Below the pieces are notes generated by a model. That model saw only the letters and a list, made by a program, of their open reading frames with translations, searched no databases and had not been told where the DNA came from. The position numbers and the translations under genes were made by a program. From Shigella phage PSD9, in the sequence record MZ561532: 64,000 bases of DNA, one strand, 5' to 3'. Each line of letters opens with the position of its first letter. Position 1 is the stretch's first letter. Positions 36,246-61,246 of the stretch are shown one piece after another.

Positions 36246-36728
36246 TTAAAAATCAAATATGTCTAATAACGAATTAGTGGTATTAATATGAACTACTGGG
36301 GCTACATAATCATCCATCCATTCGGGATATCTGCGCCCTTCAGATCGGTCATTAGGGTCTAATGTATTTGCATATGCAAAGTTATATGAAATTATATCTC
36401 GATGTTCTTTAGTGTCACCGACAATATTTAAGATACGTTGGCATAAAAAATCATAGTTATCTTTCATATACTCAATACAATACATATCCTTTAAAGCTTG
36501 GGTTGGCGATACTCCTATTTCCAATTTCTTACGGATAACGGCTTCAACAAGATTACCATCTCCTGCTGAAGGTTCAAAGAATGTATTACCGGCCTTAAAG
36601 GATTCTTCACCACAAAGCTTTAAAAGAATTTTTGTACAGTACTCATTAGTGAATACCTCGTCAGTAGATTGTTGACGCTCACGAGATATTTCACCGTTTT
36701 TTCTTGAATTATCAATTGCTAATTTCAT
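36246..36728 (-). CDS. Hypothetical protein with SAM-binding-like motif (FFEPSAGDGNLV), about 160 aa
   Basis: Track ORF 36246..36731; ATG 36728 lies inside the 3' end of the upstream 499-aa ORF (17-nt overlap); motif resembles MTase motif I. Confidence 0.45.
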   Translation of the reverse strand: MKLAIDNSRKNGEISRERQQSTDEVFTNEYCTKILLKLCGEESFKAGNTFFEPSAGDGNLVEAVIRKKLEIGVSPTQALKDMYCIEYMKDNYDFLCQRILNIVGDTKEHRDIISYNFAYANTLDPNDRSEGRRYPEWMDDYVAPVVHINTTNSLLDIFDF

Positions 36729-43338: not shown

Positions 43339-43652
43339 CTCTTAGATTTAATTTTATCCAGTTCTTCTTGTATTTGCATTGTAACACATTTTTCTACATG
43401 AAGCGCCAGCTCTTCTTTTCGGTCTTCGGAAGGTGTTCCGAAATCAACCGACACTTTTCCATCTTTCTCAATAACAATATTCATCACATAAACGATGTGA
43501 GCAGTGCCATCGGGTAAAGTAAGCATAATTTCCTGCTTAACCGATCCCATTGACTTACGGATTATATCTAATGATTTCTCATAATAACGAGGGTCACTAG
43601 GACCCTCTTCGGTATCTTTAACGAAATTATCTAAATCAGATAAATCAGTCAT
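43323..43652 (-). CDS. 40: gp40-like protein (assigned by position between uvsX and 41)
   Basis: 109-aa ORF; synteny 41-40-uvsX as in T4; sequence identity unverified. Confidence 0.5.
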   Translation of the reverse strand: MTDLSDLDNFVKDTEEGPSDPRYYEKSLDIIRKSMGSVKQEIMLTLPDGTAHIVYVMNIVIEKDGKVSVDFGTPSEDRKEELALHVEKCVTMQIQEELDKIKSKRWWKW

Positions 43653-44817
43653 CTAAATCCATCTCTTCCAAATCGTTTTCGATATCAGCGGCGCTTTGGG
43701 CATTACCACCTAATTTAACAGCAACGTTCTTAGAGACACGAGAGTTAATAAGGTCGTTCACTGCATCGTCAACTTCTTTAATAGAATTAATTGCACCGAG
43801 CTTATACTTATTCTCGATTGCTTCACGGAACGGGGCATGTTTAAACAGCGGTCCCCAGAACTCGACACAATCGGTAGCTTTAGCACGCCATGCTTTTTCT
43901 TCTTGAACCATTTCGCCTGTGGTTTCGTCAAGGAATGCACGATTATACCAGCCAGCTTTAGGTTTCACGACAAAGCCAATATCAGTAGCCATTTCAAGCA
44001 ATCCACTGAATGGGTCGATACCACCTTCGAAGTTCACTGTAATCGGGAACGTTGATTTCTCTTTAACCGTACGAGATTTCTCGGCCTTCAGTGTGAAGTC
44101 ATAACCAGTGAGCTCAGTACCATCTTTAACCTGACGTTTAGAGATAAAGAACACGGTAGAAGCAGAGTACAGAATACCAGTACCACCACCCATAATCTCT
44201 TTAGGGTACATTCCACCAATTTCCATAGCCGTGTGGTTAATTGCTACACAAGGGATATCTTTGATAGTCAGATAAGGTGTTACGATACGGAACAGAGATT
44301 TCAGTGACTTAGCACGGGTCATATCACCTACAACTTTCTCGTTCAAAGCATCTTCGGTTTCTTTCTTAGAAGCAGTGTTACCAATGGAGTCGATAAAGAT
44401 AATAACCTTTTCGCCACGAGTAATTTCTTCTAACTGGTTGGTCATATCAACTTTAAGCTGTTCGACTGACTGGATTGGTGTATGAACCACACGTTCCAAA
44501 TCAACACCCATCGAACGGAAATAAGATTCTGAAGCACCAAACTCAGAGTCATAGAACAAACAAATTGCGTCTGGATATTTCTTCATATATGCCGCAACCA
44601 TGGTAAGTCCAAACAACGTTTTAAAGTGTTTAGATGGAGCAGCAAAGATTGTCAAACCTGATTGTAAGCCTGCATTCAACGCACCGCCTAATGCAATATT
44701 CAGCATAGGGATACGAGTAGGAACTTCGTCACGACCATTAAACAATTTAGATTTGGTCAGGTCGGCGGTCATTTTAGAAGTAGAAGCTTTAATCAAACGG
44801 GATTTTAAATCAGACAT
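43645..44817 (-). CDS. uvsX: Recombinase UvsX (RecA-like)
   Basis: 390-aa ORF; N-terminus MSDLKSRLIKASTSKMTADL and much of the body match recalled T4 UvsX. Confidence 0.9.
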   Translation of the reverse strand: MSDLKSRLIKASTSKMTADLTKSKLFNGRDEVPTRIPMLNIALGGALNAGLQSGLTIFAAPSKHFKTLFGLTMVAAYMKKYPDAICLFYDSEFGASESYFRSMGVDLERVVHTPIQSVEQLKVDMTNQLEEITRGEKVIIFIDSIGNTASKKETEDALNEKVVGDMTRAKSLKSLFRIVTPYLTIKDIPCVAINHTAMEIGGMYPKEIMGGGTGILYSASTVFFISKRQVKDGTELTGYDFTLKAEKSRTVKEKSTFPITVNFEGGIDPFSGLLEMATDIGFVVKPKAGWYNRAFLDETTGEMVQEEKAWRAKATDCVEFWGPLFKHAPFREAIENKYKLGAINSIKEVDDAVNDLINSRVSKNVAVKLGGNAQSAADIENDLEEMDLDD

Positions 44818-44894: not shown

Positions 44895-45788
44895 TTAAAG
44901 GACCACGTCCTCATAACTTGGCATTTCGTGCTCAGAATGGATGTGGGCACCGAAATAAATGAATTCAGCCAGACCAGGATGAAATACTAAACTGGGATTC
45001 TCATGATAAATGATATGAGGTCTTGATTTCAGAATCTGATAATATTCAACCTTACTCGGTTTGAATTTAATAATCTCTACATCAGGACGATAGTCTTCAC
45101 GCTTAAATGAATCATTCGGATCGGTGATATAAAGGCGAGAACCTTCAGCCGCAGCTTGGTCTACAACTCTTTCGAATTGATAACATTTATCAGAGATACG
45201 GAATGGATGGAAAATACCATCAATTTTAATAGGCGCTAGACCTTCAGAGTAACGCTCAATTACTGCGGGATTAATTACCTTTTGGTCTACAAAAATCTTA
45301 TCAGAGGACGCACCTCGTGACACCAGGACGTCTTTCTGACATTGATTCAAGACTGTAGTATAAATCGAACGTTCAACTGAACCCACGTCGGTATCAATAA
45401 ACTCATCGATGTAATAACGAGGAACTTCAGGGTCCATTGTAATGTTAAAGTTGAATTGTACGGTATGAGCACCATCATAACCTGTGATATCGGTTACCAA
45501 TCCTGAGCAGTCATAGTATTCGATTAACGAATCAACAACGAACTCATTTTCAGACCAAAAATGTTTACGAGTTTCATAAGCATTTTCTTTATACCAAAGA
45601 GGTACAAAATTCAGTTCAGGAAATAATTCAATGCATTCTTTGATATCGCTCGAATTTCTAGGATAAGCCAGATAATCACCTGGGCAAGCACGGTTTAAAT
45701 GGAGTTGAAAATTACCGTCCTTAAGGACGGCATATTCACCTGTTTCGTAACTACGCATACTGAAAATAGGAACGATAAACAAACTCAT
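44895..45788 (-). CDS. Hypothetical protein (297 aa) occupying the T4 beta-glucosyltransferase position; candidate DNA-modification enzyme
   Basis: Lies between uvsX and gene 42 where T4 encodes beta-gt; no similarity to recalled beta-gt; start overlaps the gp42 stop (ATGA coupling). Confidence 0.5.
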   Translation of the reverse strand: MSLFIVPIFSMRSYETGEYAVLKDGNFQLHLNRACPGDYLAYPRNSSDIKECIELFPELNFVPLWYKENAYETRKHFWSENEFVVDSLIEYYDCSGLVTDITGYDGAHTVQFNFNITMDPEVPRYYIDEFIDTDVGSVERSIYTTVLNQCQKDVLVSRGASSDKIFVDQKVINPAVIERYSEGLAPIKIDGIFHPFRISDKCYQFERVVDQAAAEGSRLYITDPNDSFKREDYRPDVEIIKFKPSKVEYYQILKSRPHIIYHENPSLVFHPGLAEFIYFGAHIHSEHEMPSYEDVVL

Positions 45789-46483
45789 TTCAGGAATCCT
45801 CGAACGTAGTCAAAATCACGTTCAAATACGTGTGCACTAACCATAGTATGGGAATACGTACCCAGACCAACACCACACTGTTCAGCAATAAAGGCCATCA
45901 GTTTACCCTGCAGATAGAAATCCAGCTGCATAACAATAGCACAGTTCTGTGAACGCATATGGGTATGTGCATAAAGACGTCCATCACGAATATAATATGT
46001 CACTGAATCAGTACATGGATATTCTAAGGATTCGTCAGAATCAAGGAGGGCTTGGTCTTGTTCTTGGAGAATTTGGAACACAACTCGTCTTGAGTTAGGC
46101 TTCTCTTTAAGCTCTTTAAGTAAGGCTGGGAGTTGGGCCACAATTCTAGGTCCATAGAAAGTGTTGAAGTTTGCAGGCAATACGTCACTTTTCGGCTTAT
46201 CAATGAACTTAGCAACATTAGGGTATTCCTTAAATGCTTCGGCGGCGTCAGTACCACCAGAAATCATAAACTTCCAGAAAGATTCGGCATAATCATAGCT
46301 GATACGATTAATACGAGGGTCGGTGAATTTATAGGTGCTTGCATCCAGTACTTCTACCGAAGCAGAACCAATTTCATAACAACGGCCGATACGAGAATCA
46401 ACTGCAAACTGTGGAGCTTCCAGGATTTCTTCGTTCATTTGCTTAAACGCGTTTTCAAAACTAACAGCGGTAATGTGTTTCAT
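45785..46483 (-). CDS. 42: dCMP hydroxymethylase gp42 (thymidylate-synthase fold)
   Basis: 232-aa ORF; KPNSRRVVF, CTDSVTYYIRDGRLYAHTHMRSQNCAIVM and SAHVFERDF align with recalled T4 gp42 (NPDSRRGIM, CTNTVQYLIRDKKINAVVNMRSNDVVFG, GSLHVYSRHF). Confidence 0.8.
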   Translation of the reverse strand: MKHITAVSFENAFKQMNEEILEAPQFAVDSRIGRCYEIGSASVEVLDASTYKFTDPRINRISYDYAESFWKFMISGGTDAAEAFKEYPNVAKFIDKPKSDVLPANFNTFYGPRIVAQLPALLKELKEKPNSRRVVFQILQEQDQALLDSDESLEYPCTDSVTYYIRDGRLYAHTHMRSQNCAIVMQLDFYLQGKLMAFIAEQCGVGLGTYSHTMVSAHVFERDFDYVRGFLK

Positions 46484-47016
46484 TTATTCACCTTATTTTC
46501 AATATATTCATTCAGACGTTTTAATTCTACCATATCGACGTTAAGCAAGTTATTATGGCCGTCGTGATTTAAGATTTTAAACACGTTTTCAAAACATGTT
46601 TCGTATTGGCGGATAGTTAGGTTGAACTCATCTTTGGTTAATTTAATAAGGTCATCTTCAAAGTCTTTATCCAGTGGATTACGGGTTAAAATAACCTCAA
46701 TAATATTGAATTCAGATTTAAACCTTTTCCAATCTTCCAGTTCTACATAAGGGTCCATTTCACCGCGAAGGAATCCCGAGTAAACAATATTACTTGGATA
46801 ACCACGGTCAAGGATGTAAACGAAATTAGGGTCTAAAAACTTATACAACGTCTCGACTAAAGCCTTGTCATTATCGGTCCCTAATGAAATGCATTTGCCA
46901 TTAATCTTTTTAGGGAAATCAATAAGACGATATTTCTTATCAGATAAAAGTGATTCAATTAAAGTAGACTTCCCGGAATTATCCGGGCCGTCGATAACAA
47001 TGATTTTTGGTTTCAC
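46480..47016 (-). CDS. P-loop nucleotide/nucleoside kinase-like protein (thymidylate-kinase fold)
   Basis: Walker A IVIDGPDNSGKSTL at the N-terminus and a downstream LDRGYPS (DR motif); ATGA coupling to gene 42. Confidence 0.6.
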   Translation of the reverse strand: MKPKIIVIDGPDNSGKSTLIESLLSDKKYRLIDFPKKINGKCISLGTDNDKALVETLYKFLDPNFVYILDRGYPSNIVYSGFLRGEMDPYVELEDWKRFKSEFNIIEVILTRNPLDKDFEDDLIKLTKDEFNLTIRQYETCFENVFKILNHDGHNNLLNVDMVELKRLNEYIENKVNK

Positions 47017-47387
47017 GGATGATATGCCTTATAGGTTTCAAGAGTTCCTTCACGAACCATTTCTTTAAAGTGGTCAGGACGGATTGCTCGGTCATCGATG
47101 ATAAAAGTATAACTCGGCTTATGTGTAAGCAGATTGTGATATTTCAATCCAATCTTTTCAAGGTTCTTAACTAATGCAGGAACTACTTCAACCAAGATTC
47201 GACCCGGGCCGCATGAAGTCATACCACGGGCAGTGAACAAGGTAATCTCGTACCCTTCATCATAAAGCTTATTAATCATGGACACCATTTCGGTGTCCGG
47301 TTTAAAGTTTTCGTAATCACGGTCATCTTGCCAGTGAGTAATGGTATTATCGATATCAAAACACAGATGCATTAAATTTTCTTCCAT
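47013..47387 (-). CDS. HAD-superfamily phosphatase-like protein
   Basis: HAD motif I CFDIDNTIT (DxDxT), motif II LFTARG, motif IV FIIDDRA; ATGA coupling to the kinase gene. Confidence 0.6.
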   Translation of the reverse strand: MEENLMHLCFDIDNTITHWQDDRDYENFKPDTEMVSMINKLYDEGYEITLFTARGMTSCGPGRILVEVVPALVKNLEKIGLKYHNLLTHKPSYTFIIDDRAIRPDHFKEMVREGTLETYKAYHP

Positions 47388-49045
47388 TGTTTGTGGAGTT
47401 CGGTAGAACCTGTAGGTTTATATTTTACACCAGTTTCCTGGTCAAGCAAAACCCACTTATCAGGACAACGAGTGATAATTTGAGCCGTGATAGGGTCGCG
47501 AACTTCATCAACGAATTCACCTGTGATAAGCTTACGCTTACGAGGATGCCGCTTCAGCAGCACACTCAGTTGATATAGCCCATTGTAATAAGCGCCCAGA
47601 GCTTTCAGAGGGTTATTTTTAAAGTAACCTGCCAATGCCATCCAAATAACGGCAATCCAGAGCTTGTGCTTAAATGTACACATCGGAATATCATCTAAAG
47701 GCATAACCTTTTCAATATCAACGAATACACGAGTTCCGTTACGAGTTAAGCCACCCCATAGAGGGTCAGAGTTAAATTTGTCATAACCATCGATAGAATA
47801 AAGCACCTTAGCTTCATCATAAATCGCAGGGCCTTTAGAACTATTACCAAAATAACCACGTGGGTCGATGATTTTAATATTACCTTCGTCCGACAACATA
47901 ATATTACTGTAGTGCGGGTCGCCATGAATAAGTTGGTACGGTTCTTTATGTTCAGACAGAATTTCTAGTGCATGACGAAGAAGTTTTTCAGGGTCGCCTA
48001 CCTTAAAGTCATTGACATGGGTAATGCCCTGTGGAGCAAAGCCTTCAATCAATCCGGCAATAGAAGCATTACGAATAAGGACCTTGTCCAATACTTCTTT
48101 CTTAACATCAGAATACCATTGCTCATCGGACGGATTATCGATAGTCCCACCGAACGAACGTAATGCACTAATAACCTTATAAACCATTAGGACTTTAGTT
48201 TCTTTAGACATAAACCGGTAGGCATCTGCCATGGTTCGACCAAAGATACGTTCCATTTTAATGAATTCGCCTGGAGCAAAGTCTACAATGCTAGGAACGA
48301 ATTCGGAATCAATAGAATTATACCAATTGATTTCTTTAGATTGGATTTCTTTACCCAATTCGTTAGTTGGTACTTTAATAGCTAGATTCTCGGTGAACTC
48401 TAATTTATTAAATTCACGGTTAATTTCAGAATCTTCATGCGCCTTAGCCAGTTTCAGTTTGTCACCAACATCAACTACAAAGTCTAACTTACGTTCAGTC
48501 AAATGGACCATTGAATCCAGGTTGTCAGCAAGGTCTTCACCATAATTAGAACGGTCGAAACCTGTCCAATTAGCCACCTGATACAAGCCAACTACGCCAC
48601 CACCGGTACCAATTTCACGCAAGTACGGTTCTTCAAATGTAAAACGACAGTCAGTCCCATAGGTATAACAGTAGTCGTTATCCCACTCAACTTTATGACC
48701 TTCAGGAATAATATCACACCAGTTAAACAAGACATTGTGCCCAATGATATCTTCGGCAATGCAATCGATAGCATGAGCCGAACCATTGGCAACATCAACG
48801 TTACGAATAGTGAATTTAGGCTTATCACTATTAATCATGTTAATGGATTTAATATAGCCTTTAACGAGGTCGTTAAATTTGCTGTGAATAACCAGAATAA
48901 TTTCATCTGATTGATTACTATACAAATCATACAAATGTTTTAATACAGTATGTTGTTTGTAGTTAACCAGTACCTTCGGGATTTCGTTGGTAATTGGATA
49001 CAACCGTGAGCCAAGACCCGCGCCTAAAATAACAACCTTTTTCAT
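47372..49045 (-). CDS. Bifunctional sugar-1-phosphate nucleotidyltransferase / APH-type anomeric sugar kinase-like protein
   Basis: Track ORF 47372..49075; ATG 49045 with SD GAGGAAC gives MKKVVILGAGLGSRLYPITNEIPKVLV (nucleotidyltransferase G-x-G-x-R-L motif); C-terminal HGDPHYSNIML and IDPRGYFG are kinase catalytic and metal-binding motifs of the aminoglycoside-phosphotransferase fold. Confidence 0.6.
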   Translation of the reverse strand: MKKVVILGAGLGSRLYPITNEIPKVLVNYKQHTVLKHLYDLYSNQSDEIILVIHSKFNDLVKGYIKSINMINSDKPKFTIRNVDVANGSAHAIDCIAEDIIGHNVLFNWCDIIPEGHKVEWDNDYCYTYGTDCRFTFEEPYLREIGTGGGVVGLYQVANWTGFDRSNYGEDLADNLDSMVHLTERKLDFVVDVGDKLKLAKAHEDSEINREFNKLEFTENLAIKVPTNELGKEIQSKEINWYNSIDSEFVPSIVDFAPGEFIKMERIFGRTMADAYRFMSKETKVLMVYKVISALRSFGGTIDNPSDEQWYSDVKKEVLDKVLIRNASIAGLIEGFAPQGITHVNDFKVGDPEKLLRHALEILSEHKEPYQLIHGDPHYSNIMLSDEGNIKIIDPRGYFGNSSKGPAIYDEAKVLYSIDGYDKFNSDPLWGGLTRNGTRVFVDIEKVMPLDDIPMCTFKHKLWIAVIWMALAGYFKNNPLKALGAYYNGLYQLSVLLKRHPRKRKLITGEFVDEVRDPITAQIITRCPDKWVLLDQETGVKYKPTGSTELHKQWKKI

Positions 49046-49105
49046 TATCTGTTCCTCAAGTGAATGTAGGTACATTATACACTATTTTTAATAAATTGGT
49101 ATTGC

Positions 49106-49606
49106 TTAAATCTTATCTTTACCGATTTCAATACACTGTTCTATTGCCGCCGGTACTTTGGTCTTGAGCTTATCGATTTGTTTCTTATAATCACGAGCTT
49201 TACCGAAGCTCTCGGTTTCGAGCATTTCGTAATAACGAGCCTCGTGGATGGAAATCTGTAGATTGATATGGTTTACGCACATCGCATACAGTTTCTGCTT
49301 TTTGTACAAATCATCTTGACGCTTCATTTCTGCCTGGTGTTTGGCTAGTACCGCTTCACGCTTGGACTCTTGTTCACGTTGGAATTCGATTTCTTGTTGA
49401 GCATATTTTGCACAGTTATTACCGCATTGATTATTAGCTCGGGTGTACACAAGTCCAGAACCTGCACGGAATTTCATTTCGCCATCGAATTGTTTCTGTT
49501 CAGCTGCGATACGAGCTTTACCAACTTCATCGGCCGAAACTGTATCACCATATTGGACCGCGCAACCTGATAGGAGCATACTCATTGCGATAATTAACTT
49601 TTTCAT
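49106..49606 (-). CDS. Predicted lipoprotein (166 aa)
   Basis: Signal peptide and lipobox MKKLIIAMSMLLSGC; downstream of the imm-like genes. Confidence 0.55.
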   Translation of the reverse strand: MKKLIIAMSMLLSGCAVQYGDTVSADEVGKARIAAEQKQFDGEMKFRAGSGLVYTRANNQCGNNCAKYAQQEIEFQREQESKREAVLAKHQAEMKRQDDLYKKQKLYAMCVNHINLQISIHEARYYEMLETESFGKARDYKKQIDKLKTKVPAAIEQCIEIGKDKI

Positions 49607-50046: not shown

Positions 50047-52758
50047 TTAAAAGTCGAACATATCAAATAATGTTGCTTTTTTCTCGTAGTCGATTTTAGC
50101 AGACTCAGTAAAACCGGTCAGAGGTTTGATAAAGGTCTTTTGGAACAGTACGTTGTAGTCCATCCAACGGAGGACTTGGTCACGAATCTGAACCGGAAGT
50201 TCAATACCTGACGGCCATGCCATACAAGCTTCACCAAACGGGTTGCCTTCTTTAAGTGGCAGTACATATACCTTTTCACCATCAACGATACGAGGCATAG
50301 TCAAATCACCTGCAGAAGCACGCATGTAAGCTAAGCAACCTTTGATGTGGTATGGACATTTAGAACCCGGGAATCCACCTTCATTATATTTCTCGATGTT
50401 GTTAGCACTGGATACTGCTGCAATGCTTACATAATCGAGTTCGTTAAATTCCTTATTAAACTGTTTGAAATATTCTTGCAAAGATGCCTCGCCTTCCTGA
50501 AGCATACGACGGATACATTCCTTCAGAGCTTTCTGAACTGCTTTAGGTGTACTTGATTTCTGAGTTTCGAGACCCATGATTTTCAAGTGTGGTTCAGCAT
50601 AACGAGTACCTTCCATGTCCCAAACGTTAAGTGCATAACGTTTCTTGCCTGTCCAGAATCCACCAAGGCCTTTAGAACCAAGTGGAGGACCTGCGATAGC
50701 TTCTCGGTCCATGAACATCAAGTGTTGTTTGTTGTTCATGTATTCGCACATCTCACGGAAGCCTGCATCAATAGCTGGTTCCATACGTTCACGTGCAAAT
50801 TTATCTAAGAAGTCGACCCAGTGGTTAGTATCACGGAATTTATCTTCGCCTACTTTATTGATGATTGCATCTGCCTTAACATAAATGGAGTCAGTATCAC
50901 CGTAGAGCACGAACTTCTGGTTTTCAGTCTTACACACACTATTCAGATATTCGTTAACCTTACGTTCAATCCATTGGAGGGCCATTTGACCAAACAATGT
51001 GATTGCAGTTGCGTTCCTGAGGTCATAGTAACGGAACCATACGTTACCAAGTGCACCATAAAGGGAGTTGATAAGCAACTTACGGTTAATCTGAGCAGTG
51101 TTACCTGCAACTTCAGTGAGCTCGGCTTTCTTCAACATTTCTCTTAAAGAAGGCGCTGACAGTGCTTTAATCTGGGCTTTGATTTCGTCAGAGAAGTCAA
51201 AACGATAATCGATATCCAGTGGACTATCAACTGAGAGATTAGGATTTTCCAATGCTTCTTTAATTAACTCGCCATTACGTTGAGCTGCAAGCATGTAACC
51301 TTTATGTTCTTTACGCTGCAAGAATACCTTTGTGATTTCTGTCGGAATCACACCTTCACGGTCTTTATAATACATCATGCCGTTAGGAGAGCAACTGTAG
51401 GTGTCGCTAGGACGCGGAGCTGTTCCGGCAATATATTCATGTATCGGTGCGTTAGCGAATGTCCCTGCGATGGTCTCTGGGCTTATATTCACTTGTCGAA
51501 TGATACTCGGATACAGAGATGTAAGGTCGAAACTCATTACATATTTGTAAGCGTTAGGAATCGGTTCCTTAACGAAAGCACCAGGATAAGGTTGGACCAC
51601 GTGTGAGCGAGCTTGTGGAATTACCTTGCCTTGTTCTTTAAGGCTATTAAAGATAATAGCGTCCCAAGTCTTAATTGGGCTGAACACCGACTGAATCTGC
51701 ATCTTGGCATAATAACCCATGTCCAAACTCAGAAGAATGAACTGACGCTTCATATCAATCTGCACTACACGATATACGTCGATAATGTTATAGGAAATAT
51801 ATCGTTGGTGGTTCGTCTCACGTAACTTAGAGATTGGACCATCATATTTCAACTTACCCACTTTCAATTCATATTCAGAAACATAATCCAGAGAATAAGA
51901 AGGCTGGTTGGTGAAGCTGAATTTTTTATAGAGGTCGATATAATCCAGAACAGAGATACCGAACAATGTAATGATTTCACGAGCACCGTACATGTTCTCA
52001 ATAACTTTAACACGAGTTTTACGATGTGGGCTTAATCGCTTAGCAGTGTTCTCACCGAACAGATTTTTCAGACGGTTATAAACGTACGGTACGTCAAACG
52101 ACTCAACGTTCCATCCAGTCAAAATCACAGGAGTTTTCTGTTGCCAGAAATTCAAGTACTCAAGCATCATTTCTTCTTCAGAATTAAACGGAAGATAAAC
52201 GATTTTGTCAATGATTTCCTGTGGAACTTCGTCACCGCCTTCGTCTTGGAGTTTCTCAGCGATTTTAATCGACCACTCTTCGACAGTACCATAAGGCGAA
52301 ACTAAAAGGTCGAATACATAGAATTTATCGTCAATCGAGTCGTAGTGGGTAATGGCATCGATAGGATGTTTAGCCTGAGCTGGTTCAGGGAATCCATCAG
52401 GAGATGTTACCTCGATGTCGAAGTTAGCAATACGAATCTTAGAAGAATCATATCTGATTTCTTTACGATAGGTATCAGACAAATAGGCTAATTTATAGTC
52501 GTCCATACCCAGGGCTTCGAGACCCATATCGTCCATACGTTTCATCCATTGGGATGCATCACGCATAGAGTCGAATTCTTTCTTAACACAACCCTTACCA
52601 TAGATATCAATGTATTTTACGGCTTGCTCTGGATTAGCATGCATAAACATTGTAGGCTTGTAAGGAACTTCACGACTACGTTCGTTACCATTTTTATCGA
52701 TGTAACGTTCGAGAATATTATCACCGATTTGTTCGACTGTCAAATAGAATTCTTGCAT
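50047..52758 (-). CDS. 43: DNA polymerase gp43 (family B)
   Basis: Track ORF 50047..52818; ATG 52758 gives MQEFYLTVEQIGDNILERYIDKNGNERSREV..., matching the recalled T4 gp43 N-terminus (MKEFY...); exonuclease and polymerase motifs (e.g. YGDTDS) conserved throughout. Confidence 0.95.
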   Translation of the reverse strand: MQEFYLTVEQIGDNILERYIDKNGNERSREVPYKPTMFMHANPEQAVKYIDIYGKGCVKKEFDSMRDASQWMKRMDDMGLEALGMDDYKLAYLSDTYRKEIRYDSSKIRIANFDIEVTSPDGFPEPAQAKHPIDAITHYDSIDDKFYVFDLLVSPYGTVEEWSIKIAEKLQDEGGDEVPQEIIDKIVYLPFNSEEEMMLEYLNFWQQKTPVILTGWNVESFDVPYVYNRLKNLFGENTAKRLSPHRKTRVKVIENMYGAREIITLFGISVLDYIDLYKKFSFTNQPSYSLDYVSEYELKVGKLKYDGPISKLRETNHQRYISYNIIDVYRVVQIDMKRQFILLSLDMGYYAKMQIQSVFSPIKTWDAIIFNSLKEQGKVIPQARSHVVQPYPGAFVKEPIPNAYKYVMSFDLTSLYPSIIRQVNISPETIAGTFANAPIHEYIAGTAPRPSDTYSCSPNGMMYYKDREGVIPTEITKVFLQRKEHKGYMLAAQRNGELIKEALENPNLSVDSPLDIDYRFDFSDEIKAQIKALSAPSLREMLKKAELTEVAGNTAQINRKLLINSLYGALGNVWFRYYDLRNATAITLFGQMALQWIERKVNEYLNSVCKTENQKFVLYGDTDSIYVKADAIINKVGEDKFRDTNHWVDFLDKFARERMEPAIDAGFREMCEYMNNKQHLMFMDREAIAGPPLGSKGLGGFWTGKKRYALNVWDMEGTRYAEPHLKIMGLETQKSSTPKAVQKALKECIRRMLQEGEASLQEYFKQFNKEFNELDYVSIAAVSSANNIEKYNEGGFPGSKCPYHIKGCLAYMRASAGDLTMPRIVDGEKVYVLPLKEGNPFGEACMAWPSGIELPVQIRDQVLRWMDYNVLFQKTFIKPLTGFTESAKIDYEKKATLFDMFDF

Positions 52759-52814
52759 TTCATTTCCTTTATAGACGAGTGATTGTCTTTTGTTTGTTGA
52801 TGAATCATTATACT

Positions 52815-52834
52815 CCAAAAGGGACCGAAGTCCC
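52815..52834 (-). terminator. GGGAC-UUCG-GUCCC hairpin plus U4 between regA-side genes and gene 43
   Basis: gggaccgaagtccc followed on the minus strand by UUUU, then a TATAAT-like hexamer (plus 52807..52812) upstream of the gene 43 leader. Confidence 0.5.
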
Positions 52835-56402: not shown

Positions 56403-58081
56403 TCCATCACCGTGAATCGTCCAACTTTCTTCATTTGAAGATGTTGGCCATAAGCTTGTGGGTCATGGTCTCGGTGAGAGATAATGAACACGTTCGTATC
56501 CTCAAGGCTATTCAAGATGGTTGCAATGGTCTTAACGCCTTCAGCGTCAGTAGCACTGTCAAATACCTCATCAAGAATTAACGTGCTGATATTAACACCT
56601 GATACCTTAGAAGCAATATCGCGCCATGTAAAAAGTAGTGCGATATCAATACGTGCTTTCTCACCCTGTGAAAATGAAGCATAACTAAAGTCTTCACGTC
56701 CACGTGATTTAATCGTCTCATTGAACTCTTCGTCTAGTGTAAAGACGTAGTCCGCTTCCATAATCTTCAAATAAGAATTTATCTGCTTATTAAAGATAGG
56801 AATGTATTTCTTAATAATGGAACCTTTAATACCGGTATCCTTCAACATTTCTGTTAGAATTCCACGATGATATTTTTCCATTACCAATGTGGATTTGGTA
56901 GAGACGATTTTATCAAGCTCTGCTTGAAGCGCGGCAATCTCTTCGGCATTACTTACGAACTCAGCAGCTGCTTGGTCGATTAATACTTTAACTTTTTTAG
57001 CTTTCTCTACGGCAGTAATGGCTTGTTGCTTATGAGTAGCTATCTGAGATTTAATAGCCAGCGCTTTATTACGTTGTTCGGTTACTTGGTCCTTAATGAG
57101 CTTGAGTTCTTGGTACTGTTCGTTAATCTTATCCAAAGATTTTTGAAGCTCAAAGTTCTTATCCTTAATTTTAGTAAGGATATTTCCATGCTCTTCCAGT
57201 CCTTGCATACATGTAGGACAACTACCACCGGTTTCGTATAATTTCACGACCTTAGTAAAGGTTGCCATATCATTCTTGATTGCAAATCCTTTATTGCTCA
57301 GGTCACTCATAGAGTTGCTAGGGTCATCATCGACGATGACATTGAGTAATTCATCAGTCAGTTTTTCTATATTGCCCTTCGCAGTCCTGGCTTCTTTAAC
57401 TAGCTCGTCATACATTACTTGTAGACGTGCTGCGTTCTCGCCGGATAATTTACGCTGACGTTCTTCGTTGTCATTATAAATTTTAATCTGTTGGGTAATA
57501 GAATCCTGTTTAACGTCGATTACTTGGATTTGGCTATTAGTCTCACGAATCAAAGATTTGTTCAACTTATCCATATCCGCTAATACAGAAACCTCTAAAA
57601 GGTCTTCCACCAGCTTTCGACGCGCTGGGGTTGACAAACCCATGAAAGGGGTATACCCTGCCGTGCCAAGAACGACAATCTGTTTGAAGCTTGCATAGGA
57701 CATTCCGATAAGCTGTTCAAATTCTGCTTGGAAGTCTTTACTGCTGGCAGATTCATCAAGACGTTCACCGCCACAAGAGATTTCAAAAATATTGGGTTTT
57801 TGCCCGCGCTTGATATAGTATTCTTTGCCATCATATTCCATCCACAGTTCGACCAAAAGGTCTTTCTTATTACTTGAGTTAATCAACTGCCCTTTCTTAA
57901 CATCACGAAAAGGCTTACCGAACAGAGCAAATGTAACGGCTTCAAGGAACGTAGATTTACCAGCGCCGTTTTTACCGGTGACTAAGGTCTTTTGGACCTT
58001 ATCAAGTTGGATTGTAATAGGTTGCTGGCCTACCGACATAATATTTTTATACGTTACTTTCTTTAACTTAAAAGTCTTCAT
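56399..58081 (-). CDS. 46: Recombination endonuclease subunit gp46 (SbcC/Rad50-like ATPase)
   Basis: Track ORF 56399..58093; ATG 58081 gives MKTFKLKKVTYKNIMSVGQQP as in T4 gp46; Walker A GKNGAGKST; long coiled-coil middle; C-terminal LILDEVFDS (Walker B/D-loop). Confidence 0.9.
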   Translation of the reverse strand: MKTFKLKKVTYKNIMSVGQQPITIQLDKVQKTLVTGKNGAGKSTFLEAVTFALFGKPFRDVKKGQLINSSNKKDLLVELWMEYDGKEYYIKRGQKPNIFEISCGGERLDESASSKDFQAEFEQLIGMSYASFKQIVVLGTAGYTPFMGLSTPARRKLVEDLLEVSVLADMDKLNKSLIRETNSQIQVIDVKQDSITQQIKIYNDNEERQRKLSGENAARLQVMYDELVKEARTAKGNIEKLTDELLNVIVDDDPSNSMSDLSNKGFAIKNDMATFTKVVKLYETGGSCPTCMQGLEEHGNILTKIKDKNFELQKSLDKINEQYQELKLIKDQVTEQRNKALAIKSQIATHKQQAITAVEKAKKVKVLIDQAAAEFVSNAEEIAALQAELDKIVSTKSTLVMEKYHRGILTEMLKDTGIKGSIIKKYIPIFNKQINSYLKIMEADYVFTLDEEFNETIKSRGREDFSYASFSQGEKARIDIALLFTWRDIASKVSGVNISTLILDEVFDSATDAEGVKTIATILNSLEDTNVFIISHRDHDPQAYGQHLQMKKVGRFTVME

Positions 58082-58331
58082 CGTTATAAGCATCCTTGAT
58101 GCATGATTCGGCCATATGGATTAATGTTTCTGGAGTATCATCTACCATTACATTAAAGCTAAATTCCACAGCCCAATCAGTAGCAACATAAACTTTAATA
58201 AGCTCGTTGGTGTCGCGAGTGCTCACGGCTTCAAACCAGAACTTAATGATATTCGTTTGGTTATCGTCATCAATAACGATGCAGTCGTGTTCTAGTTCAA
58301 GGCCTGATTTTTTGAATTCATCTAAAGTCAT
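58068..58331 (-). CDS. Hypothetical protein (87 aa)
   Basis: Track ORF between genes 47 and 46. Confidence 0.5.
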   Translation of the reverse strand: MTLDEFKKSGLELEHDCIVIDDDNQTNIIKFWFEAVSTRDTNELIKVYVATDWAVEFSFNVMVDDTPETLIHMAESCIKDAYNDEDF

Positions 58332-59350
58332 CGTGTAACCTCATTATAAAGTTGTGCGGCCATAGTCTTAAGGGCTTTAACATCGTCTTCAGTGTGGCCA
58401 TCAGGAAGGGCATCGATATAATCATACATCATATCCAAGAGGGACTTAACTTCATCTTCCTCTTCAGAATCATCGATATCAACACTGTTATCTACCTTAG
58501 ACACAATACGTAAAGAGTGAACAACCTTTTCAAGTTCAGATTCGAACTTGGTAAGCCCGTCATCAATTTTATCGACTATAACACGAACCGCAATATTTGT
58601 AAAATCTTTGTAATCGATAGTCGCATTCGGATAATGAATCTTACGATGCCAACAAGTTTCATTGATGATGAAATCCATTTTATGGGTTTCTGTATCGAAA
58701 ATCCAGAAGCCACGAGGGTCGTTCTCATCACCTGCAGTCAGGGTCCATGGCGTACCAATATACTTGACGTTTGCTGCATCAGAAATGGTGTGGAAGTGAC
58801 CAGACCATACTTGCTTATACTTCTTAAGGAAATCAGGTTCTAAACCATGTGATTTCATTCCTTTATAGAAATAGAAACCATTTAATTCCCAGTGGCCAAT
58901 GCAGAAATCTGCTGTAGTATTTTTGATATGGTCCATGATATCGGTCGTGTTTTCTTCACACATCCATGGAATCAAATCAATTTCGGTGCCATCAAAGTTA
59001 ACAGTAGTAGGTTTCTCGTAAACAGTAAAATTTTCATACTGAGTAAGAAGTTCAGAAACCGCATTAGGAGTTATGCTATTTTTAAACGTTGCATCATGGT
59101 TACCAATTATAACATGGACTTTAATACCTGCATCGCTGATAATTTCCACCAGACCACGATTAAATTCCATACATTTATGGGTGATAGCCTTGCGTACATC
59201 GAACCAATCACCATATTGAATCCATGTATCAATATTGTTTGCTTTAGAATATTCTACAGCCTGTTTAATACCGTTAAGCTGGATTTCCTGAATCCAAGGG
59301 TCATCGGCTTTTACTCCGATATGCAAATCACCTATATTCAAAATTTTCAT
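58328..59350 (-). CDS. 47: Recombination endonuclease subunit gp47 (SbcD/Mre11-like)
   Basis: 340-aa ORF; calcineurin-like phosphoesterase motifs (MKILNIGDLHIG, GNHD, GHWE/GHFH). Confidence 0.9.
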   Translation of the reverse strand: MKILNIGDLHIGVKADDPWIQEIQLNGIKQAVEYSKANNIDTWIQYGDWFDVRKAITHKCMEFNRGLVEIISDAGIKVHVIIGNHDATFKNSITPNAVSELLTQYENFTVYEKPTTVNFDGTEIDLIPWMCEENTTDIMDHIKNTTADFCIGHWELNGFYFYKGMKSHGLEPDFLKKYKQVWSGHFHTISDAANVKYIGTPWTLTAGDENDPRGFWIFDTETHKMDFIINETCWHRKIHYPNATIDYKDFTNIAVRVIVDKIDDGLTKFESELEKVVHSLRIVSKVDNSVDIDDSEEEDEVKSLLDMMYDYIDALPDGHTEDDVKALKTMAAQLYNEVTR

Positions 59351-59404
59351 AATCTACCTTTATAATGTATTTCATAGATTCATTTTATCATCCAAATATA
59401 AAGC

Positions 59405-59424
59405 AAAAAAGGAGCCTAAGCTCC
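59405..59424 (-). terminator. GGAGC-UUAG-GCUCC hairpin plus U6
   Basis: ggagcctaagctcc preceded by aaaaaa on the plus strand; on the minus transcript it overlaps the stop of the small ORF. Confidence 0.5.
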
Positions 59425-59589
59425 TTTACCAACTAATACACCGTACAGAGGTTCGTGATTAGACCTGAACTTGATAGGCTTATAGGTAATAGTACCTTCA
59501 TTTTCTGCTTTAATACGAGCGGCTTCAAATTGAAGTATCATCTCATTTTTGTCAGATTTAATCTTATCAAAATCCATCGAATTCGTCAT
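59416..59589 (-). CDS. Small hypothetical protein (57 aa, below the ORF-track cutoff)
   Basis: ATG 59589 with SD AGAGG; translation MTNSMDFDKIKSDKNEMILQFEAARIKAENEGTITYKPIKFRSNHEPLYGVLVGKGA; stop codon sits inside the terminator loop. Confidence 0.35.
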   Translation of the reverse strand: MTNSMDFDKIKSDKNEMILQFEAARIKAENEGTITYKPIKFRSNHEPLYGVLVGKGA

Positions 59590-59647
59590 TCATACAACCT
59601 CTTAAACTTTTTCGTATTCGTCTTTCATTAGCCGCCTGTCCACGTTA

Positions 59648-59848
59648 TCATCGTTGCCACCATTTCTTAAGTTGATGAGAATCTACCCAAACCTTGGCTA
59701 CGGGCTCAATCCGAAAAATTCCATCGGAATACTGGCCGACCATTTTATATTCGGTTTCGGACTGCTTAATACAGATATTACCGTATGAGCGAAGTCTAAA
59801 GGCGGCTCCAATAAGAAGCCGTTTAAAGGGTTTATTTACTAGGGCCAT
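59648..59848 (-). CDS. Hypothetical protein (66 aa)
   Basis: Track ORF. Confidence 0.45.
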   Translation of the reverse strand: MALVNKPFKRLLIGAAFRLRSYGNICIKQSETEYKMVGQYSDGIFRIEPVAKVWVDSHQLKKWWQR

Positions 59849-60143
59849 TGACGATTTCCCAAATTTGTTTGCGGGTAGATTCCCACATCAATTGAACAAG
59901 TTCATCAGTAACAGGTTGACGGTAAATACCACGTAATTTAATTAAAGCGTACTTATATGCTTCAAAGTTGTTTTCAAGTACAGCGCCTTGGGCATGGAGA
60001 TTTAAACGACGGATTTCACGAGCATTCTTCTTAAGAATCTTAGCCGCTTGAGAATTAGCTTCTTTAATATTGTGCTCTTCTAAACGTTGCTGGGCTTCTT
60101 CAATTTGCTCATCAGTCAATTGAGAAATGTCATGGCTTTGCAT
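59832..60143 (-). CDS. Hypothetical protein (103 aa)
   Basis: Track ORF. Confidence 0.5.
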   Translation of the reverse strand: MQSHDISQLTDEQIEEAQQRLEEHNIKEANSQAAKILKKNAREIRRLNLHAQGAVLENNFEAYKYALIKLRGIYRQPVTDELVQLMWESTRKQIWEIVNGPSK

Positions 60144-60144
60144 A

Positions 60145-60336
60145 TTAATCCTTTGGAGTCAATTCAATAGTGAAGTAGAAATTAGCGTTCTCAACATGAT
60201 AACGGTAATCTACGTTATTGTCAGGAGAAGTGAATTCAATATTCCTGACGTTAAGTGGGTCAATATCAATAGGAAGGCCTTTAACATCCCGTAATATCAA
60301 TTTAATAAAATAAGGGAGTGCTTCGAAGTCTTCCAT
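60145..60336 (-). CDS. Hypothetical protein (start uncertain)
   Basis: Track ORF 60145..60411 would overlap the gene 55 3' end; an internal ATG at 60336 avoids this. Confidence 0.4.
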   Translation of the reverse strand: MEDFEALPYFIKLILRDVKGLPIDIDPLNVRNIEFTSPDNNVDYRYHVENANFYFTIELTPKD

Positions 60337-60358
60337 TCCATCTAAAAGTGGAGTGATA

Positions 60359-60916
60359 TTAATCTGATGTTCCATATAAAAAATCCAGTTCACCGACTTT
60401 AGGTTCGGCACTCTTATCAGACCCTGGTGCTTTAGTTAAAGAGGTTTCATACTGAGTCATTTTGTCGTAGATATCTTGGATAAAGGTTTCATCTGCAATA
60501 CCTACCATGTCGTCATCATTACTGTCATAGACATTATGGACGAAGTAGCTATATTTCTTTGCCATTTCTTTACGTTCTTTTTTGATACGCTGAACGAAGG
60601 CATTAAAACAAGCCATAGTGATATATGCATGTGGGTTGTCGTATTTTGTTTCGTCGAAGTTGTGAAGACCTTTAATCGAAGCTTCGATTCCATCAGCAAT
60701 CATTTCTTGCTTCCAAGATTGGGTATATCCTGAGAAGTTGAAACGTTTACTTAGTCCTTCAGCAATGAGCATAATAGCCAAGCCGATAACGTCGTTCTGG
60801 CGAACTATTTTATTAGGATCGGTATTTTCTCTGAGTTCTGTTTTCCATTGGGTGATAGCTTTCAGAAGCTCCTTATTATTTACATAGTTATTTTTAGTCA
60901 GTTTAATTTCGGTCAT
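60359..60916 (-). CDS. 55: Late-promoter sigma factor gp55
   Basis: 185-aa ORF; [19 protein letters not shown]...[58 protein letters not shown]... nearly identical to recalled T4 gp55. Confidence 0.9.
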
Positions 60917-60982
60917 TGTTACCTCAGATAACTCAAATCATAGGTCTATTATATCATAGTATTTGAAGACCCTTTTAAAGCA

Positions 60983-61246
60983 TCAACGGAGTAAGCAATA
61001 AGCCTGAAATACGGTTTCAAGGATTTGTGTGAACTCGGAATAAGAAATTGTATCAGTACATCCATGTTCAGACATATATCCACAAAATTCTTTAAAAAGA
61101 CCTGGATATTCGCGATGGTTGTATTTGGAAATATGAGACTTCCATACTAAAGAAGTCTCACCACAAACAAACTCAACATCCATACAGTTATCTATTAAGA
61201 AAAATCCGAGACCTTCGTAGGCGAGGGTGGTGGATATGGGTTTCAT
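60983..61246 (-). CDS. Hypothetical protein (87 aa)
   Basis: Track ORF. Confidence 0.5.
   Translation of the reverse strand: MKPISTTLAYEGLGFFLIDNCMDVEFVCGETSLVWKSHISKYNHREYPGLFKEFCGYMSEHGCTDTISYSEFTQILETVFQAYCLLR

Follow-up and report, generated by a model that had tools for sequence, protein, structure and literature searches.

In T4, the gene for alpha-glucosyltransferase (alpha-gt) lies between genes 47 and 55, and the corresponding interval of the DNA analysed here raises the question of why no such gene is found there and which cytosine modification, if any, the phage makes in place of T-even glucosylation. The stretch analysed as a whole, 64 kb in length and referred to below as the window, aligns with Dhakavirus genomes at 97-99% identity, a level that places its source among the Dhakaviruses as a T4-like coliphage of the JS98/Bp7/LHE83 type. 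The interval is without a glucosyltransferase because the phage belongs to a described group that puts arabinose on 5-hydroxycytosine (5hoC). In our reading, which we hold with good confidence, it carries an arabinosyl-5-hydroxycytosine gene set between uvsX and gene 43, approximately 10 kb from the 47-55 interval, does not glucosylate hmC, and probably has mono-arabinosylated DNA.

Both the layout without glucosyltransferase genes and the arabinosyl-5-hydroxycytosine pathway are already published (Petrov 2010; Thomas 2018; Lee et al. NAR 2026). JS98 was counted in 2010 among the phages that have a "gene 42" allele and no glucosyltransferase genes (Petrov et al., PMC2993671), the pathway was solved in 2025-2026 in RB69, DLP3, and HY126, and Dhakaviruses are named among the genera with a conserved 5hodC cluster (Lee et al. 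NAR 2026, PMC13326640). The absence of alpha-gt from this locus thus opens no new question in itself. A literature search returned no chemical analysis of Dhakavirus DNA.

The interval between genes 47 and 55

The interval is bounded on the left by gene 47 (58328-59350), which encodes an SbcD-like recombination nuclease subunit (Pfam Metallophos; PHROG 100, E=8e-134) with 70% identity to T4 gp47 and 71% to RB69 gp47, and on the right by gene 55 (60359-60916), which encodes the late sigma factor (PHROG 234, E=9e-69; 79% identity to its T4 and 81% to its RB69 counterpart), both on the minus strand. The 1008 bases between them (59351-60358) hold four small minus-strand ORFs, which are orthologs of T4 a-gt.2, a-gt.3, a-gt.4, and a-gt.5. 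The a-gt.2 ortholog (59416-59589) encodes 57 aa (Pfam DUF5486, E=2e-19; PHROG 2140, E=1e-31; 57% identity to T4 a-gt.2), and the a-gt.3 ortholog (59648-59848) encodes 66 aa (PHROG 1648, E=3e-29; 46%). These are followed by the a-gt.4 ortholog (59832-60143), with 103 aa (Pfam DUF2654, E=4e-23; PHROG 951, E=1e-39; 41%), and the a-gt.5 ortholog (60145-60375), with 76 aa from its ATG (Pfam DUF5491, E=3e-14; PHROG 1169, E=3e-29; 41%). The last of these, annotated as 231 bp in Bp7, would be 88 aa long if started at an upstream GTG, and its beginning shares bases with the end of gene 55. None of the plus-strand ORFs within the interval exceeds 80 aa, and all lie antisense to the four orthologs. The first-pass annotation had described an interval with no alpha-gt and only four small ORFs of 57 to 103 aa, a description borne out by the ORFs and by their orthology to T4. 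A literature search found no published functions for a-gt.2 to a-gt.5. The name a-gt.2 is also used in the annotations of RB69 and QL01.

Since the T4 order is 47, 47.1, a-gt, mobB, a-gt.2 to a-gt.5, 55, the sole difference from T4 is the slot between 47 and a-gt.2. In the window, the place of 47.1, alpha-gt, and mobB is taken by a 65-bp spacer (59351-59415, minus strand), examined by sequence reading and a terminator scan; the latter located a terminator-like hairpin (59427-59408) that overlaps the a-gt.2 stop codon. The spacer also contains, upstream of gene 47, a candidate MotA-box-like motif (TTTGCTTTA-N11-TAAAAT), a putative promoter proposed by comparison with the T4 middle-promoter consensus. 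The 65 bp resemble none of alpha-gt, 47.1, and mobB and contain no trace of these genes. The RB69 interval is gene-for-gene the same as that of the window, with a-gt.2 to a-gt.5 only. In certain Dhakaviruses, such as QL01 and vB_EcoM_005, an HNH endonuclease is encoded between 47 and a-gt.2.

Absence of the T-even glucosyltransferases

No homolog of either T-even glucosyltransferase occurs in the window or anywhere in the Bp7 genome, which is complete and belongs to a close Dhakavirus relative with 97-99% identity. The earlier statement that both are missing therefore stands: a genuine alpha-gt or beta-gt at another locus would have contradicted it, and neither sequence contains one. In tblastn searches of the 64-kb window, the best match to T4 alpha-gt had E=0.019 (a 36-aa chance match in a phosphatase gene of the HAD type) and none fell in the 47-55 interval, whereas T4 beta-gt gave a best match of E=2.4. 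Remnants of alpha-gt were also sought by tblastn at permissive E-values in the interval and the window, which returned only noise. Across the whole Bp7 genome (tblastn; phmmer --max against 380 ORFs), alpha-gt gave nothing below E=0.07 and beta-gt gave no match.

In the wider collection, alpha-gt had 657 tblastn matches, which fall in other genera; judging from their identity bands, its homologs are restricted to phages of the Tequatrovirus type, to Klebsiella phages (60-80% identity), and to a few other groups, with 10 more records below 60%, Erwinia phage Cronus among them. For beta-gt, no Dhakavirus was present among the 30 of 126 matches listed.

A modification gene cluster between uvsX and gene 43

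The cluster is flanked by uvsX (43645-44817; 90% identity to RB69 UvsX and 67% to T4 UvsX) on the left and by the DNA polymerase gene 43 (50047-52818; 83% to RB69 gp43 and 61% to T4 gp43) on the right, both on the minus strand, as are the cluster genes and gene 56 described below. Between uvsX and a gene of the thymidylate synthase superfamily, at the exact position of beta-gt in T4, lies a gene (44895-45788) for a 297-aa protein with a high-confidence GT-B structure model. The absence of beta-gt had also been asserted in the first-pass annotation; no T4 beta-gt homolog exists there, but the canonical slot is not empty. The 297-aa protein shares position and fold class with T4 beta-gt and does not belong to its family. 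It has no Pfam match, the PDB yielded nothing by either sequence or profile search, and its identification as a GT-B protein came from fold comparison alone. It is the ortholog of RB69 gp46:47 ("arabinosyltransferase 1"; 64-70% identity) and shares 51.5% identity with the only transferase of Shewanella phage Thanatos; as a GT-B-fold ortholog of the RB69 gp46:47/DLP3 gp79 type, it answers to the description of the first DNA arabinosyltransferase. No family member has so far yielded a reconstituted first arabosyl transfer, and individual transferases were inactive on 5hoC DNA (PMC13326640).

The adjacent thymidylate synthase homolog (ThyA homolog; 45785-46483) had been taken for gene 42 in the claim that the hmC genes 42 and 56 are both present. 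Gene 56 (35282-35803), encoding a dCTPase/dUTPase (Pfam dUTPase_2; PHROG 173; 90% identity to RB69 gp56 and 69% to T4 gp56), is indeed present, but the ThyA homolog is of the RB69 gp48 type and not a gp42 ortholog: it is 79% identical to RB69 gp48 versus 25% over 159 aa to T4 gp42, and with core genes nearby at 61-79% identity to T4, an authentic gene 42 should lie far above 25%. Among PDB entries, it matches 9iqu/9iqc at E=6e-126 and T4 dCMP hydroxymethylase (1b49) at E=1e-5. Its Cys157, E154, N181, and D189 align with C146, L143, D169, and N177 of E. coli ThyA, so that D169N, N177D, L143E, and the catalytic Cys, the signature of 5-hydroxy-dCMP synthases, are all present; T4 gp42 keeps Asp at the D169 position, where the ThyA homolog has Asn, which separates it from gp42 orthologs. 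The D169N signature has been defined, and both its predictive value and the activity of RB69 gp48 have been shown experimentally (PMC13326640). The ThyA homolog is therefore a predicted 5-hydroxy-dCMP synthase, expected from its orthologs to hydroxylate dCMP in a flavin-dependent reaction with O2, and the predicted base is most likely 5-hydroxycytosine rather than hmC.

Three further genes complete the set. The first (46480-47016) encodes a P-loop thymidylate-kinase-like nucleotide kinase, the ortholog of RB69 gp45 (37% identity; PHROG 761, thymidylate kinase, E=9e-40). It is followed by the gene for a 124-aa HAD-type sugar-phosphate phosphatase (47013-47387), the ortholog of RB69 gp51 (62% identity; PDB 9iqw, E=3e-53, and 1xpj, E=3e-12), which is an analog of HY126 AfhF and is predicted to convert Araf-1,5-P2 to Araf-1-P, a role drawn from PMC13326640. 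The third (47372-49075) encodes a bifunctional 567-aa protein that joins a nucleotidyltransferase at its N terminus (Pfam NTP_transferase, residues 13-110) to a sugar kinase at its C terminus (Pfam APH, residues 356-427; PHROG 4098, E=6e-269). This protein is the ortholog of RB69 gp52:53 (44% identity to gp53 and 41% to gp52), and an analog of HY126 AfhE, with predicted arabinose 5-phosphate (Ara5P) kinase and UDP-arabinose pyrophosphorylase activities. An AfhE-like kinase/uridylyltransferase and an AfhF-like HAD phosphatase, which together characterize UDP-arabinose synthesis, are thus both encoded here. A 166-aa ORF (49106-49606) was considered as a possible missing pathway enzyme and rejected: it encodes a lipoprotein signal (LLSGC lipobox), has few homologs, and adjoins imm.

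Components of the RB69 system missing from the window and from Bp7

Homologs of RB69 gp3, gp50, and the gp55 isomerase were found neither in the window nor in the whole Bp7 genome (tblastn, phmmer). [quoted passage not shown] As for the second and third arabinosyltransferases (RB69 gp3; DLP3 gp76/gp77), no gp3 homolog occurs in the window or in Bp7, and the slot between rIIA.1 and gene 39, in which RB69 carries gp3, is too small in the window for a gene of this type. The gp3 matches in the collection come either from Mosigvirus, at 95% identity or above, or from Acinetobacter phages, at less than 60%; all 156 E. coli/Shigella-type matches are at least 95% identical and are therefore assigned to Mosigvirus, with no Dhakavirus among them.

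Ten large unassigned Bp7 proteins had no match to glycosyltransferase families in Pfam and PHROGs, and the whole Bp7 annotation was also read; altogether, the Bp7 genome has one detectable transferase-family member and no detectable gp3-type enzyme. When the profile of the 297-aa family was compared by hhalign with all ORFs of at least 200 aa, the positive controls T4 alpha-gt, T4 beta-gt, and RB69 gp3 were not recovered.

Proposed pathway

The enzymatic activities in the following scheme are assigned by orthology. In the proposed pathway, gp56 would yield dCMP and remove dCTP, and the ThyA homolog, the orthologs of which depend on flavin and O2, would hydroxylate dCMP to 5-hydroxy-dCMP. Conversion to the triphosphate would then fall to host NDK and to the phage dNMP kinase, the product of gene 1, which lies outside the window, before incorporation by gp43. 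Arabinose 5-phosphate would probably come from host KdsD/GutQ, since no phage isomerase is found; the ability of these enzymes to supply Ara5P is well established in E. coli. From Ara5P, UDP-arabinofuranose may be formed by the 567-aa kinase/uridylyltransferase together with the 124-aa HAD phosphatase, and the 297-aa GT-B protein encoded in the beta-gt slot would transfer its arabinose to the 5-hydroxyl. Because the second RB69 transferase, gp3, has no ortholog here, the product is probably mono-arabinosylated.

Comparison with known systems

The first-pass annotation had proposed a comparison with RB69-like arabinosylating phages, which proved to be the right lead. RB69 and other Mosigvirus members likewise carry the cluster between uvsX and gene 43, with orthologs of the synthase, the GT-B enzyme, the HAD phosphatase, the kinase/uridylyltransferase, gp45, and gp56 at the identities given above. 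Unlike the window phage, RB69 has the gp55 isomerase, gp50, and gp49, and its kinase gene lies beside uvsX rather than after the synthase gene. RB69 DNA is a mix of mono and di forms, whereas that of the window phage is predicted from gene content to be mono-arabinosylated.

Thanatos resembles the window phage in having a minimal set of one ThyA homolog, one 300-aa GT-B-like protein, and one nucleotidyltransferase/kinase of approximately 560 aa (TH1_060, TH1_062, and TH1_063; PMC12838424), although host and phage lineage differ. In vitro, TH1_063 acted as a UDP-xylose pyrophosphorylase, and the authors of that study regard the sugar as a deoxypentose, possibly xylose (PMC12838424), whereas Lee et al. 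treat Thanatos as mono-arabinosylated (PMC13326640). The glucosyl-hmC system of T4 (gp42, alpha-gt, and beta-gt) differs throughout, since it uses a 5-hydroxymethyl base, folate, and glucose, where a 5-hydroxy base, flavin with O2, and arabinose are predicted for the window phage. In contrast to T4, the window phage must make its own sugar nucleotide, and no homology at the sequence level can be detected between its enzymes and alpha-gt or beta-gt.

Alternative explanations

One alternative is that hmC is made after all, by a gene 42 dCMP hydroxymethylase together with gene 56, and is either unglycosylated or modified by another transferase. We consider this very unlikely: although the ThyA homolog belongs to the T4 gp42 superfamily and carries the dCMP-specifying N177D, it is far closer to a proven 5hodCMP synthase and has Asn at the D169-equivalent position, and next to it lie the gene for a GT-B enzyme and a full complement of UDP-arabinose genes. 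The historical record for hmC, namely the "gene 42" allele of JS98 without glucosyltransferase genes (Petrov et al. 2010, PMC2993671) and the ara-hmC first reported for RB69 (Thomas et al. 2018), is offset by the correction of the RB69 base to arabinosyl-5-hydroxycytosine (PMC13326640; PMC13390438). A second alternative, by which alpha-gt was recently deleted from the 47-55 interval and the interval is the resulting scar, appears highly improbable. The spacer holds no alpha-gt remnant, every Dhakavirus relative examined, like the Mosigvirus RB69, shows the layout without alpha-gt, and alpha-gt homologs are confined to the groups listed above; moreover, an enzyme that makes glucosyl-hmC would be without substrate in a 5hoC phage. 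The plasticity of the slot, which holds 47.1, alpha-gt, and the homing endonuclease gene mobB in T4 and an HNH endonuclease in QL01 and vB_EcoM_005, would suit a deletion, but gain in the T-even line and ancient loss are both compatible with the data.

It is also conceivable, though unlikely, that the DNA carries a glycosylated 5-hydroxycytosine that is not simply mono-arabinosyl, either with more than one sugar (added by the GT-B enzyme or by a cryptic second transferase) or with another pentose such as xylose. The sugar-activating enzymes, as clear orthologs (41-62%) of the RB69/HY126 UDP-arabinose enzymes, argue for arabinose, and the presence of a single detectable transferase-family member, with no gp3 type, in the whole Bp7 genome argues for one sugar, as does the single-transferase phage Thanatos, stated to be mono-arabinosylated (PMC13326640). 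What speaks for a different product is a gene set unlike that of RB69 (no gp55 isomerase, gp50, or gp3, and a relocated kinase gene), the use of xylose-1-phosphate by the Thanatos homolog in vitro (PMC12838424), and the occurrence of other sugars on the same 5hoC base in other phages (PMC13326640).

Implications for Dhakaviruses

With mono-arabinosyl-5-hydroxycytosine as the preferred reading, two annotations of JS98/Bp7-type phages may be corrected: "thymidylate synthase / gene 42" to 5-hydroxy-dCMP synthase, and the "hypothetical protein" beside uvsX to DNA arabinosyltransferase, the latter two activities being predicted from orthologs. Many of these phages are used or proposed for therapy, and the type of cytosine modification determines which restriction, CRISPR, and glycosylase defences are escaped or triggered; a prediction of mono-arabinosyl-5hoC for the genus is therefore useful. 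A further proposition, on which we place about even weight, is that Dhakaviruses represent a natural minimal arabinosyl-5-hydroxycytosine system, with one transferase and no phage isomerase, gp50, or second transferase, in which the DNA would be purely mono-arabinosylated and the sugar would be supplied by KdsD/GutQ of the host KDO pathway. If true, such a minimal system would give these phages a host dependency and a defence-sensitivity profile unlike those of RB69-type phages.

Gene order and the interval between genes 47 and 55

Escherichia phages Bp7 and E33 match the segment at 58000-61200 with 98.9% identity, and the longer segment 40000-64000 shows 97-99% identity to WG01, QL01, E33, and Bp7, all of which are Dhakavirus members of the JS98 group of Tevenvirinae. 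The G+C content of the window is about 39%, and the genes of the region studied lie on the minus strand and follow the T4 order (61, 41, 40, uvsX, ..., 43, regA, 62, 44, 45, 46, 47, ..., 55). Gene 46 is whole (564 aa); its Bp7 counterpart is split by a homing endonuclease. Gene 46.1 (DUF5487), found in T4, RB69, Bp7, and QL01, is missing at the junction of genes 46 and 46.2 (58068-58093), as it also is in vB_EcoM_005, and its absence accounts for a length difference of about 209 bp from Bp7.

Between gene 47 (58328-59350, minus strand) and gene 55 (60359-60916, minus strand), the first-pass annotation had reported only four small ORFs of 57 to 103 aa and no alpha-gt, the T4 alpha-glucosyltransferase gene, and this was borne out. 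All four ORFs lie on the minus strand, match Pfam or PHROG families of T4-like phages, and are orthologs of T4 a-gt.2 (57 aa, 59416-59589; DUF5486; 57% identity), a-gt.3 (66 aa, 59648-59848; phrog_1648; 46%), a-gt.4 (103 aa, 59832-60143; DUF2654; 41%), and a-gt.5 (76 aa with the ATG start, 88 aa with a GTG start further upstream, 60145-60375; DUF5491; 41%). Besides these genes the interval contains no ORF longer than 80 aa, and tblastn with T4 alpha-gt, 47.1, and mobB gave no match in the interval or the window. The T4 interval reads 47, 47.1, a-gt, mobB, a-gt.2-a-gt.5, 55, so the one point of difference is what separates 47 from a-gt.2, in the window a 65-bp spacer. On the minus strand, 59351-59427 holds a strong hairpin terminator (AAAGGAGC-TTAG-GCTCCTTT, then a T-run) that overlaps the a-gt.2 stop codon, and the spacer contains a MotA-box-like element, TTTGCTTTA-N11-TAAAAT, which, judged by the known consensus, resembles a middle promoter that would drive gene 47 under MotA control. 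Together, the two elements suggest a transcription reset ahead of gene 47.

RB69 has an identical four-gene interval, likewise without alpha-gt, and the same four genes without alpha-gt are present in Bp7, QL01, and vB_EcoM_005. The slot between 47 and a-gt.2 is occupied by 47.1, alpha-gt, and mobB in T4 and by an HNH homing endonuclease in QL01 (locus L009, 1547-2164) and vB_EcoM_005 (locus L008, 1348-2103); these differing contents thus mark it as an insertion hot spot, a recurrent insertion site where alpha-gt is one alternative insert among several. Among 50,697 phage records, alpha-gt homologs form three groups by identity: Tequatrovirus (at least 90%), Klebsiella phages (60-80%), and 10 records below 60%. 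Since a-gt.2-a-gt.5 are retained in phages without alpha-gt, they are not tied to glucosylation, and their names denote position only; the literature search found no published function for them.

The modification cluster between uvsX and gene 43

In T4 this locus reads uvsX, segA, b-gt, 42, imm, 43. The corresponding cluster of PSD9, flanked by uvsX (43645-44817) and gene 43 (50047-52818), begins with a 297-aa protein (44895-45788, minus strand) for which neither Pfam nor sequence and profile searches of the PDB gave a match. In RB69 its counterpart is gp46:47, one gene that a sequencing error had broken in two (Lee et al., PMC13326640); the two parts show 70% and 64% identity to the 297-aa protein. 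An AlphaFold2 model of this protein, for which 80 homologs were used, has very high confidence (pLDDT 95.9, pTM 0.90). Given the modelled GT-B fold next to uvsX, the canonical beta-gt position is occupied by a predicted GT-B enzyme without sequence homology to beta-gt; beta-gt is thus absent from its locus, as had been noted, but the slot is filled. The family comprises 354 phage records, of which 49 at least 95% identical are Dhakaviruses (100% in LHE83), while identity is about 67% for Mosigvirus members, 51.5% for Shewanella phage Thanatos-1, and about 49% for phages of Acinetobacter; judged on Bp7 by tblastn and phmmer, it has a single member in the genome.

Published readings of this family disagree. 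Lee et al. 2026 (PMC13326640) describe it as the first DNA arabinosyltransferase, and report that no homolog has yet been made to carry out the first arabinose transfer in vitro. For the 51.5% identical TH1_063 of Thanatos, Brandt et al. 2025 (PMC12838424) measured UDP-xylose pyrophosphorylase activity, with UDP-xylose formed from UTP and xylose-1-phosphate, and call the Thanatos sugar a deoxypentose. Eleven residues are invariant in the family (R74, P195, F196, R197, D200, Y203, T222, P224, N225, K246, and H270) and could steer mutagenesis.

The next gene (45785-46483), taken in the first-pass annotation as gene 42 of an hmC pathway, encodes a 232-aa thymidylate-synthase homolog that is 79% identical to RB69 gp48 over its full length and only 25% identical to T4 gp42 over 159 aa; as a yardstick, five other proteins of the window (gp47, gp55, UvsX, gp56, and gp43) share 61-79% identity with their T4 counterparts. 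PDB matches rank accordingly (9iqu/9iqc, E=6e-126; MilA, E=3e-14; T4 dCMP hydroxymethylase, E=1e-5). The protein was aligned with E. coli ThyA (numbering checked), the td of the phage itself, T4 gp42, and RB69 gp48. The catalytic Cys is retained (C157, corresponding to C146 of ThyA), L143 of ThyA is replaced by Glu, and N177 by Asp, the latter change being the one that confers dCMP specificity. At the D169 position, Asn is found in the 232-aa protein and RB69 gp48, whereas T4 gp42 and true thymidylate synthases have Asp. Experimentally, RB69 gp48 and DLP3 gp80 convert dCMP to 5-hydroxy-dCMP; the D169N signature is stated to be predictive of this conversion, and the genera listed as having the conserved cluster include the Dhakaviruses (Lee et al., PMC13326640). 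The gp48 homology, the D169N signature, and these data identify the gene, at the sequence level, as an ortholog of the 5-hydroxy-dCMP synthases rather than a gene for hmC synthesis, which corrects the premise of the first-pass annotation. The other half of the proposed hmC pair, gene 56 (35282-35803), is indeed present, at 90% identity to RB69 gp56.

Downstream lie a 178-aa P-loop kinase (46480-47016; 37% identical to RB69 gp45), a 124-aa protein (47013-47387; 62% identical to RB69 gp51; PDB 9iqw, E=3e-53), and a 567-aa protein (47372-49075) whose N-terminal domain is a nucleotidyltransferase and whose C-terminal domain is an APH-type kinase; the 567-aa protein is 41-44% identical to RB69 gp52:53 and shares its two-domain architecture. 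The gp51 and gp52:53 homologs correspond to HY126 AfhF, a phosphatase converting Araf-1,5-P2 to Araf-1-P, and AfhE, a bifunctional Ara5P kinase and UDP-arabinose pyrophosphorylase (Lee et al., PMC13326640, citing He et al.).

A 166-aa ORF (49106-49606, minus strand) lies between the 567-aa gene and imm, with small ORFs and imm beyond. It carries an N-terminal lipoprotein signal (MKKLIIAMSMLLSGC) and conserved Cys residues, has only 11 homologs in a 5.8-billion-protein database, and lacks a counterpart in the T4 and RB69 regions compared. The lipoprotein signal, the place next to imm, and the few homologs led us to reject it as a sugar-pathway member; possible alternatives are a membrane protein or one related to superinfection.

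Two overlapping ORFs (36246-38211, minus strand) take the place that dam has in T4, between genes 56 and 61: a 499-aa ORF with an N-terminal GIY-YIG domain, the "MNPPF" adenine-methyltransferase motif IV, and a C-terminus resembling homing endonucleases, followed by a 161-aa ORF with the SAM-binding motif "FFEPSAGDGNL". They look like a methyltransferase split by, or fused to, a homing endonuclease, and tblastn does not match them to T4 Dam; in Bp7 the position holds another homing endonuclease.

Search for further transferases

The search for an alpha-gt or beta-gt homolog elsewhere in the genome, which would have refuted the first-pass reading, came out negative. In the window, tblastn with T4 alpha-gt (best E=0.019), T4 beta-gt (E=2.4), and the second RB69 transferase gp3 (E=3.7) returned chance-level matches only. 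The remainder of the PSD9 genome was assessed through its 97-99% identical relative Bp7, whose complete genome was put together from five loci and searched by tblastn (E<=1) and by phmmer --max on 380 stop-to-stop ORFs of at least 100 aa; no homolog of alpha-gt, beta-gt, or RB69 gp3, gp50, or gp55 was found, and no glycosyltransferase family came to light in the Bp7 annotation or when the ten largest proteins left unassigned there were scanned against Pfam and PHROGs. Sequence methods may overlook highly divergent GT-B proteins, and an hhalign screen for these did not recover its positive controls, so a cryptic second transferase is possible. Two Bp7 proteins outside the window have no assigned function, one of 319 aa (DUF7277 and DUF7275; L007, 4105-5064) and one of 289 aa (DUF7235; L001, 30384-31253); either may be a cryptic transferase.

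Predicted modification

Arabinosyl-5-hydroxycytosine and its gene clusters were established by Lee et al. 2026 (PMC13326640) and, reportedly, by Mahler et al. 2025. Earlier, Petrov et al. 2010 (PMC2993671) noted homologs of genes 42 and 56 without glucosyltransferase genes in RB69 and JS98 and asked about the modification, and Thomas et al. 2018 reported arabinose in RB69 DNA and a homolog of its sugar-activating enzyme in the Dhakavirus IME08. The finding is therefore a published genus-level trait, and both the absence of the glucosyltransferases and the presence of the arabinosyl cluster in Dhakavirus are already known; the first-pass observation is confirmed and its interpretation partly supported. 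The literature search found no chemical analysis of Dhakavirus DNA, and this chemistry, with the consequences of the reduced gene set, is the only undocumented element.

PSD9 shares with RB69 the interval layout and the synthase, transferase, and sugar-activation homologs, but lacks counterparts of gp3, gp49, gp50, and the arabinose-5-phosphate isomerase gp55. E. coli itself produces arabinose 5-phosphate, through KdsD and GutQ, on the way to KDO; if the host enzymes supply it, a phage isomerase would be dispensable. Homologs of gp3 occur in 156 Mosigvirus records (at least 95% identical) and in 56 records below 60%, mostly Acinetobacter phages, and in no Dhakavirus of the phage collection. 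In their proposed scheme, Lee et al. (PMC13326640) assign transfer of the first arabinose to gp46:47 and of the second to gp3, and they report that Thanatos, with one transferase, is mono-arabinosylated. By analogy to this single-transferase phage, PSD9 DNA should carry mono-arabinosyl-5-hydroxycytosine.
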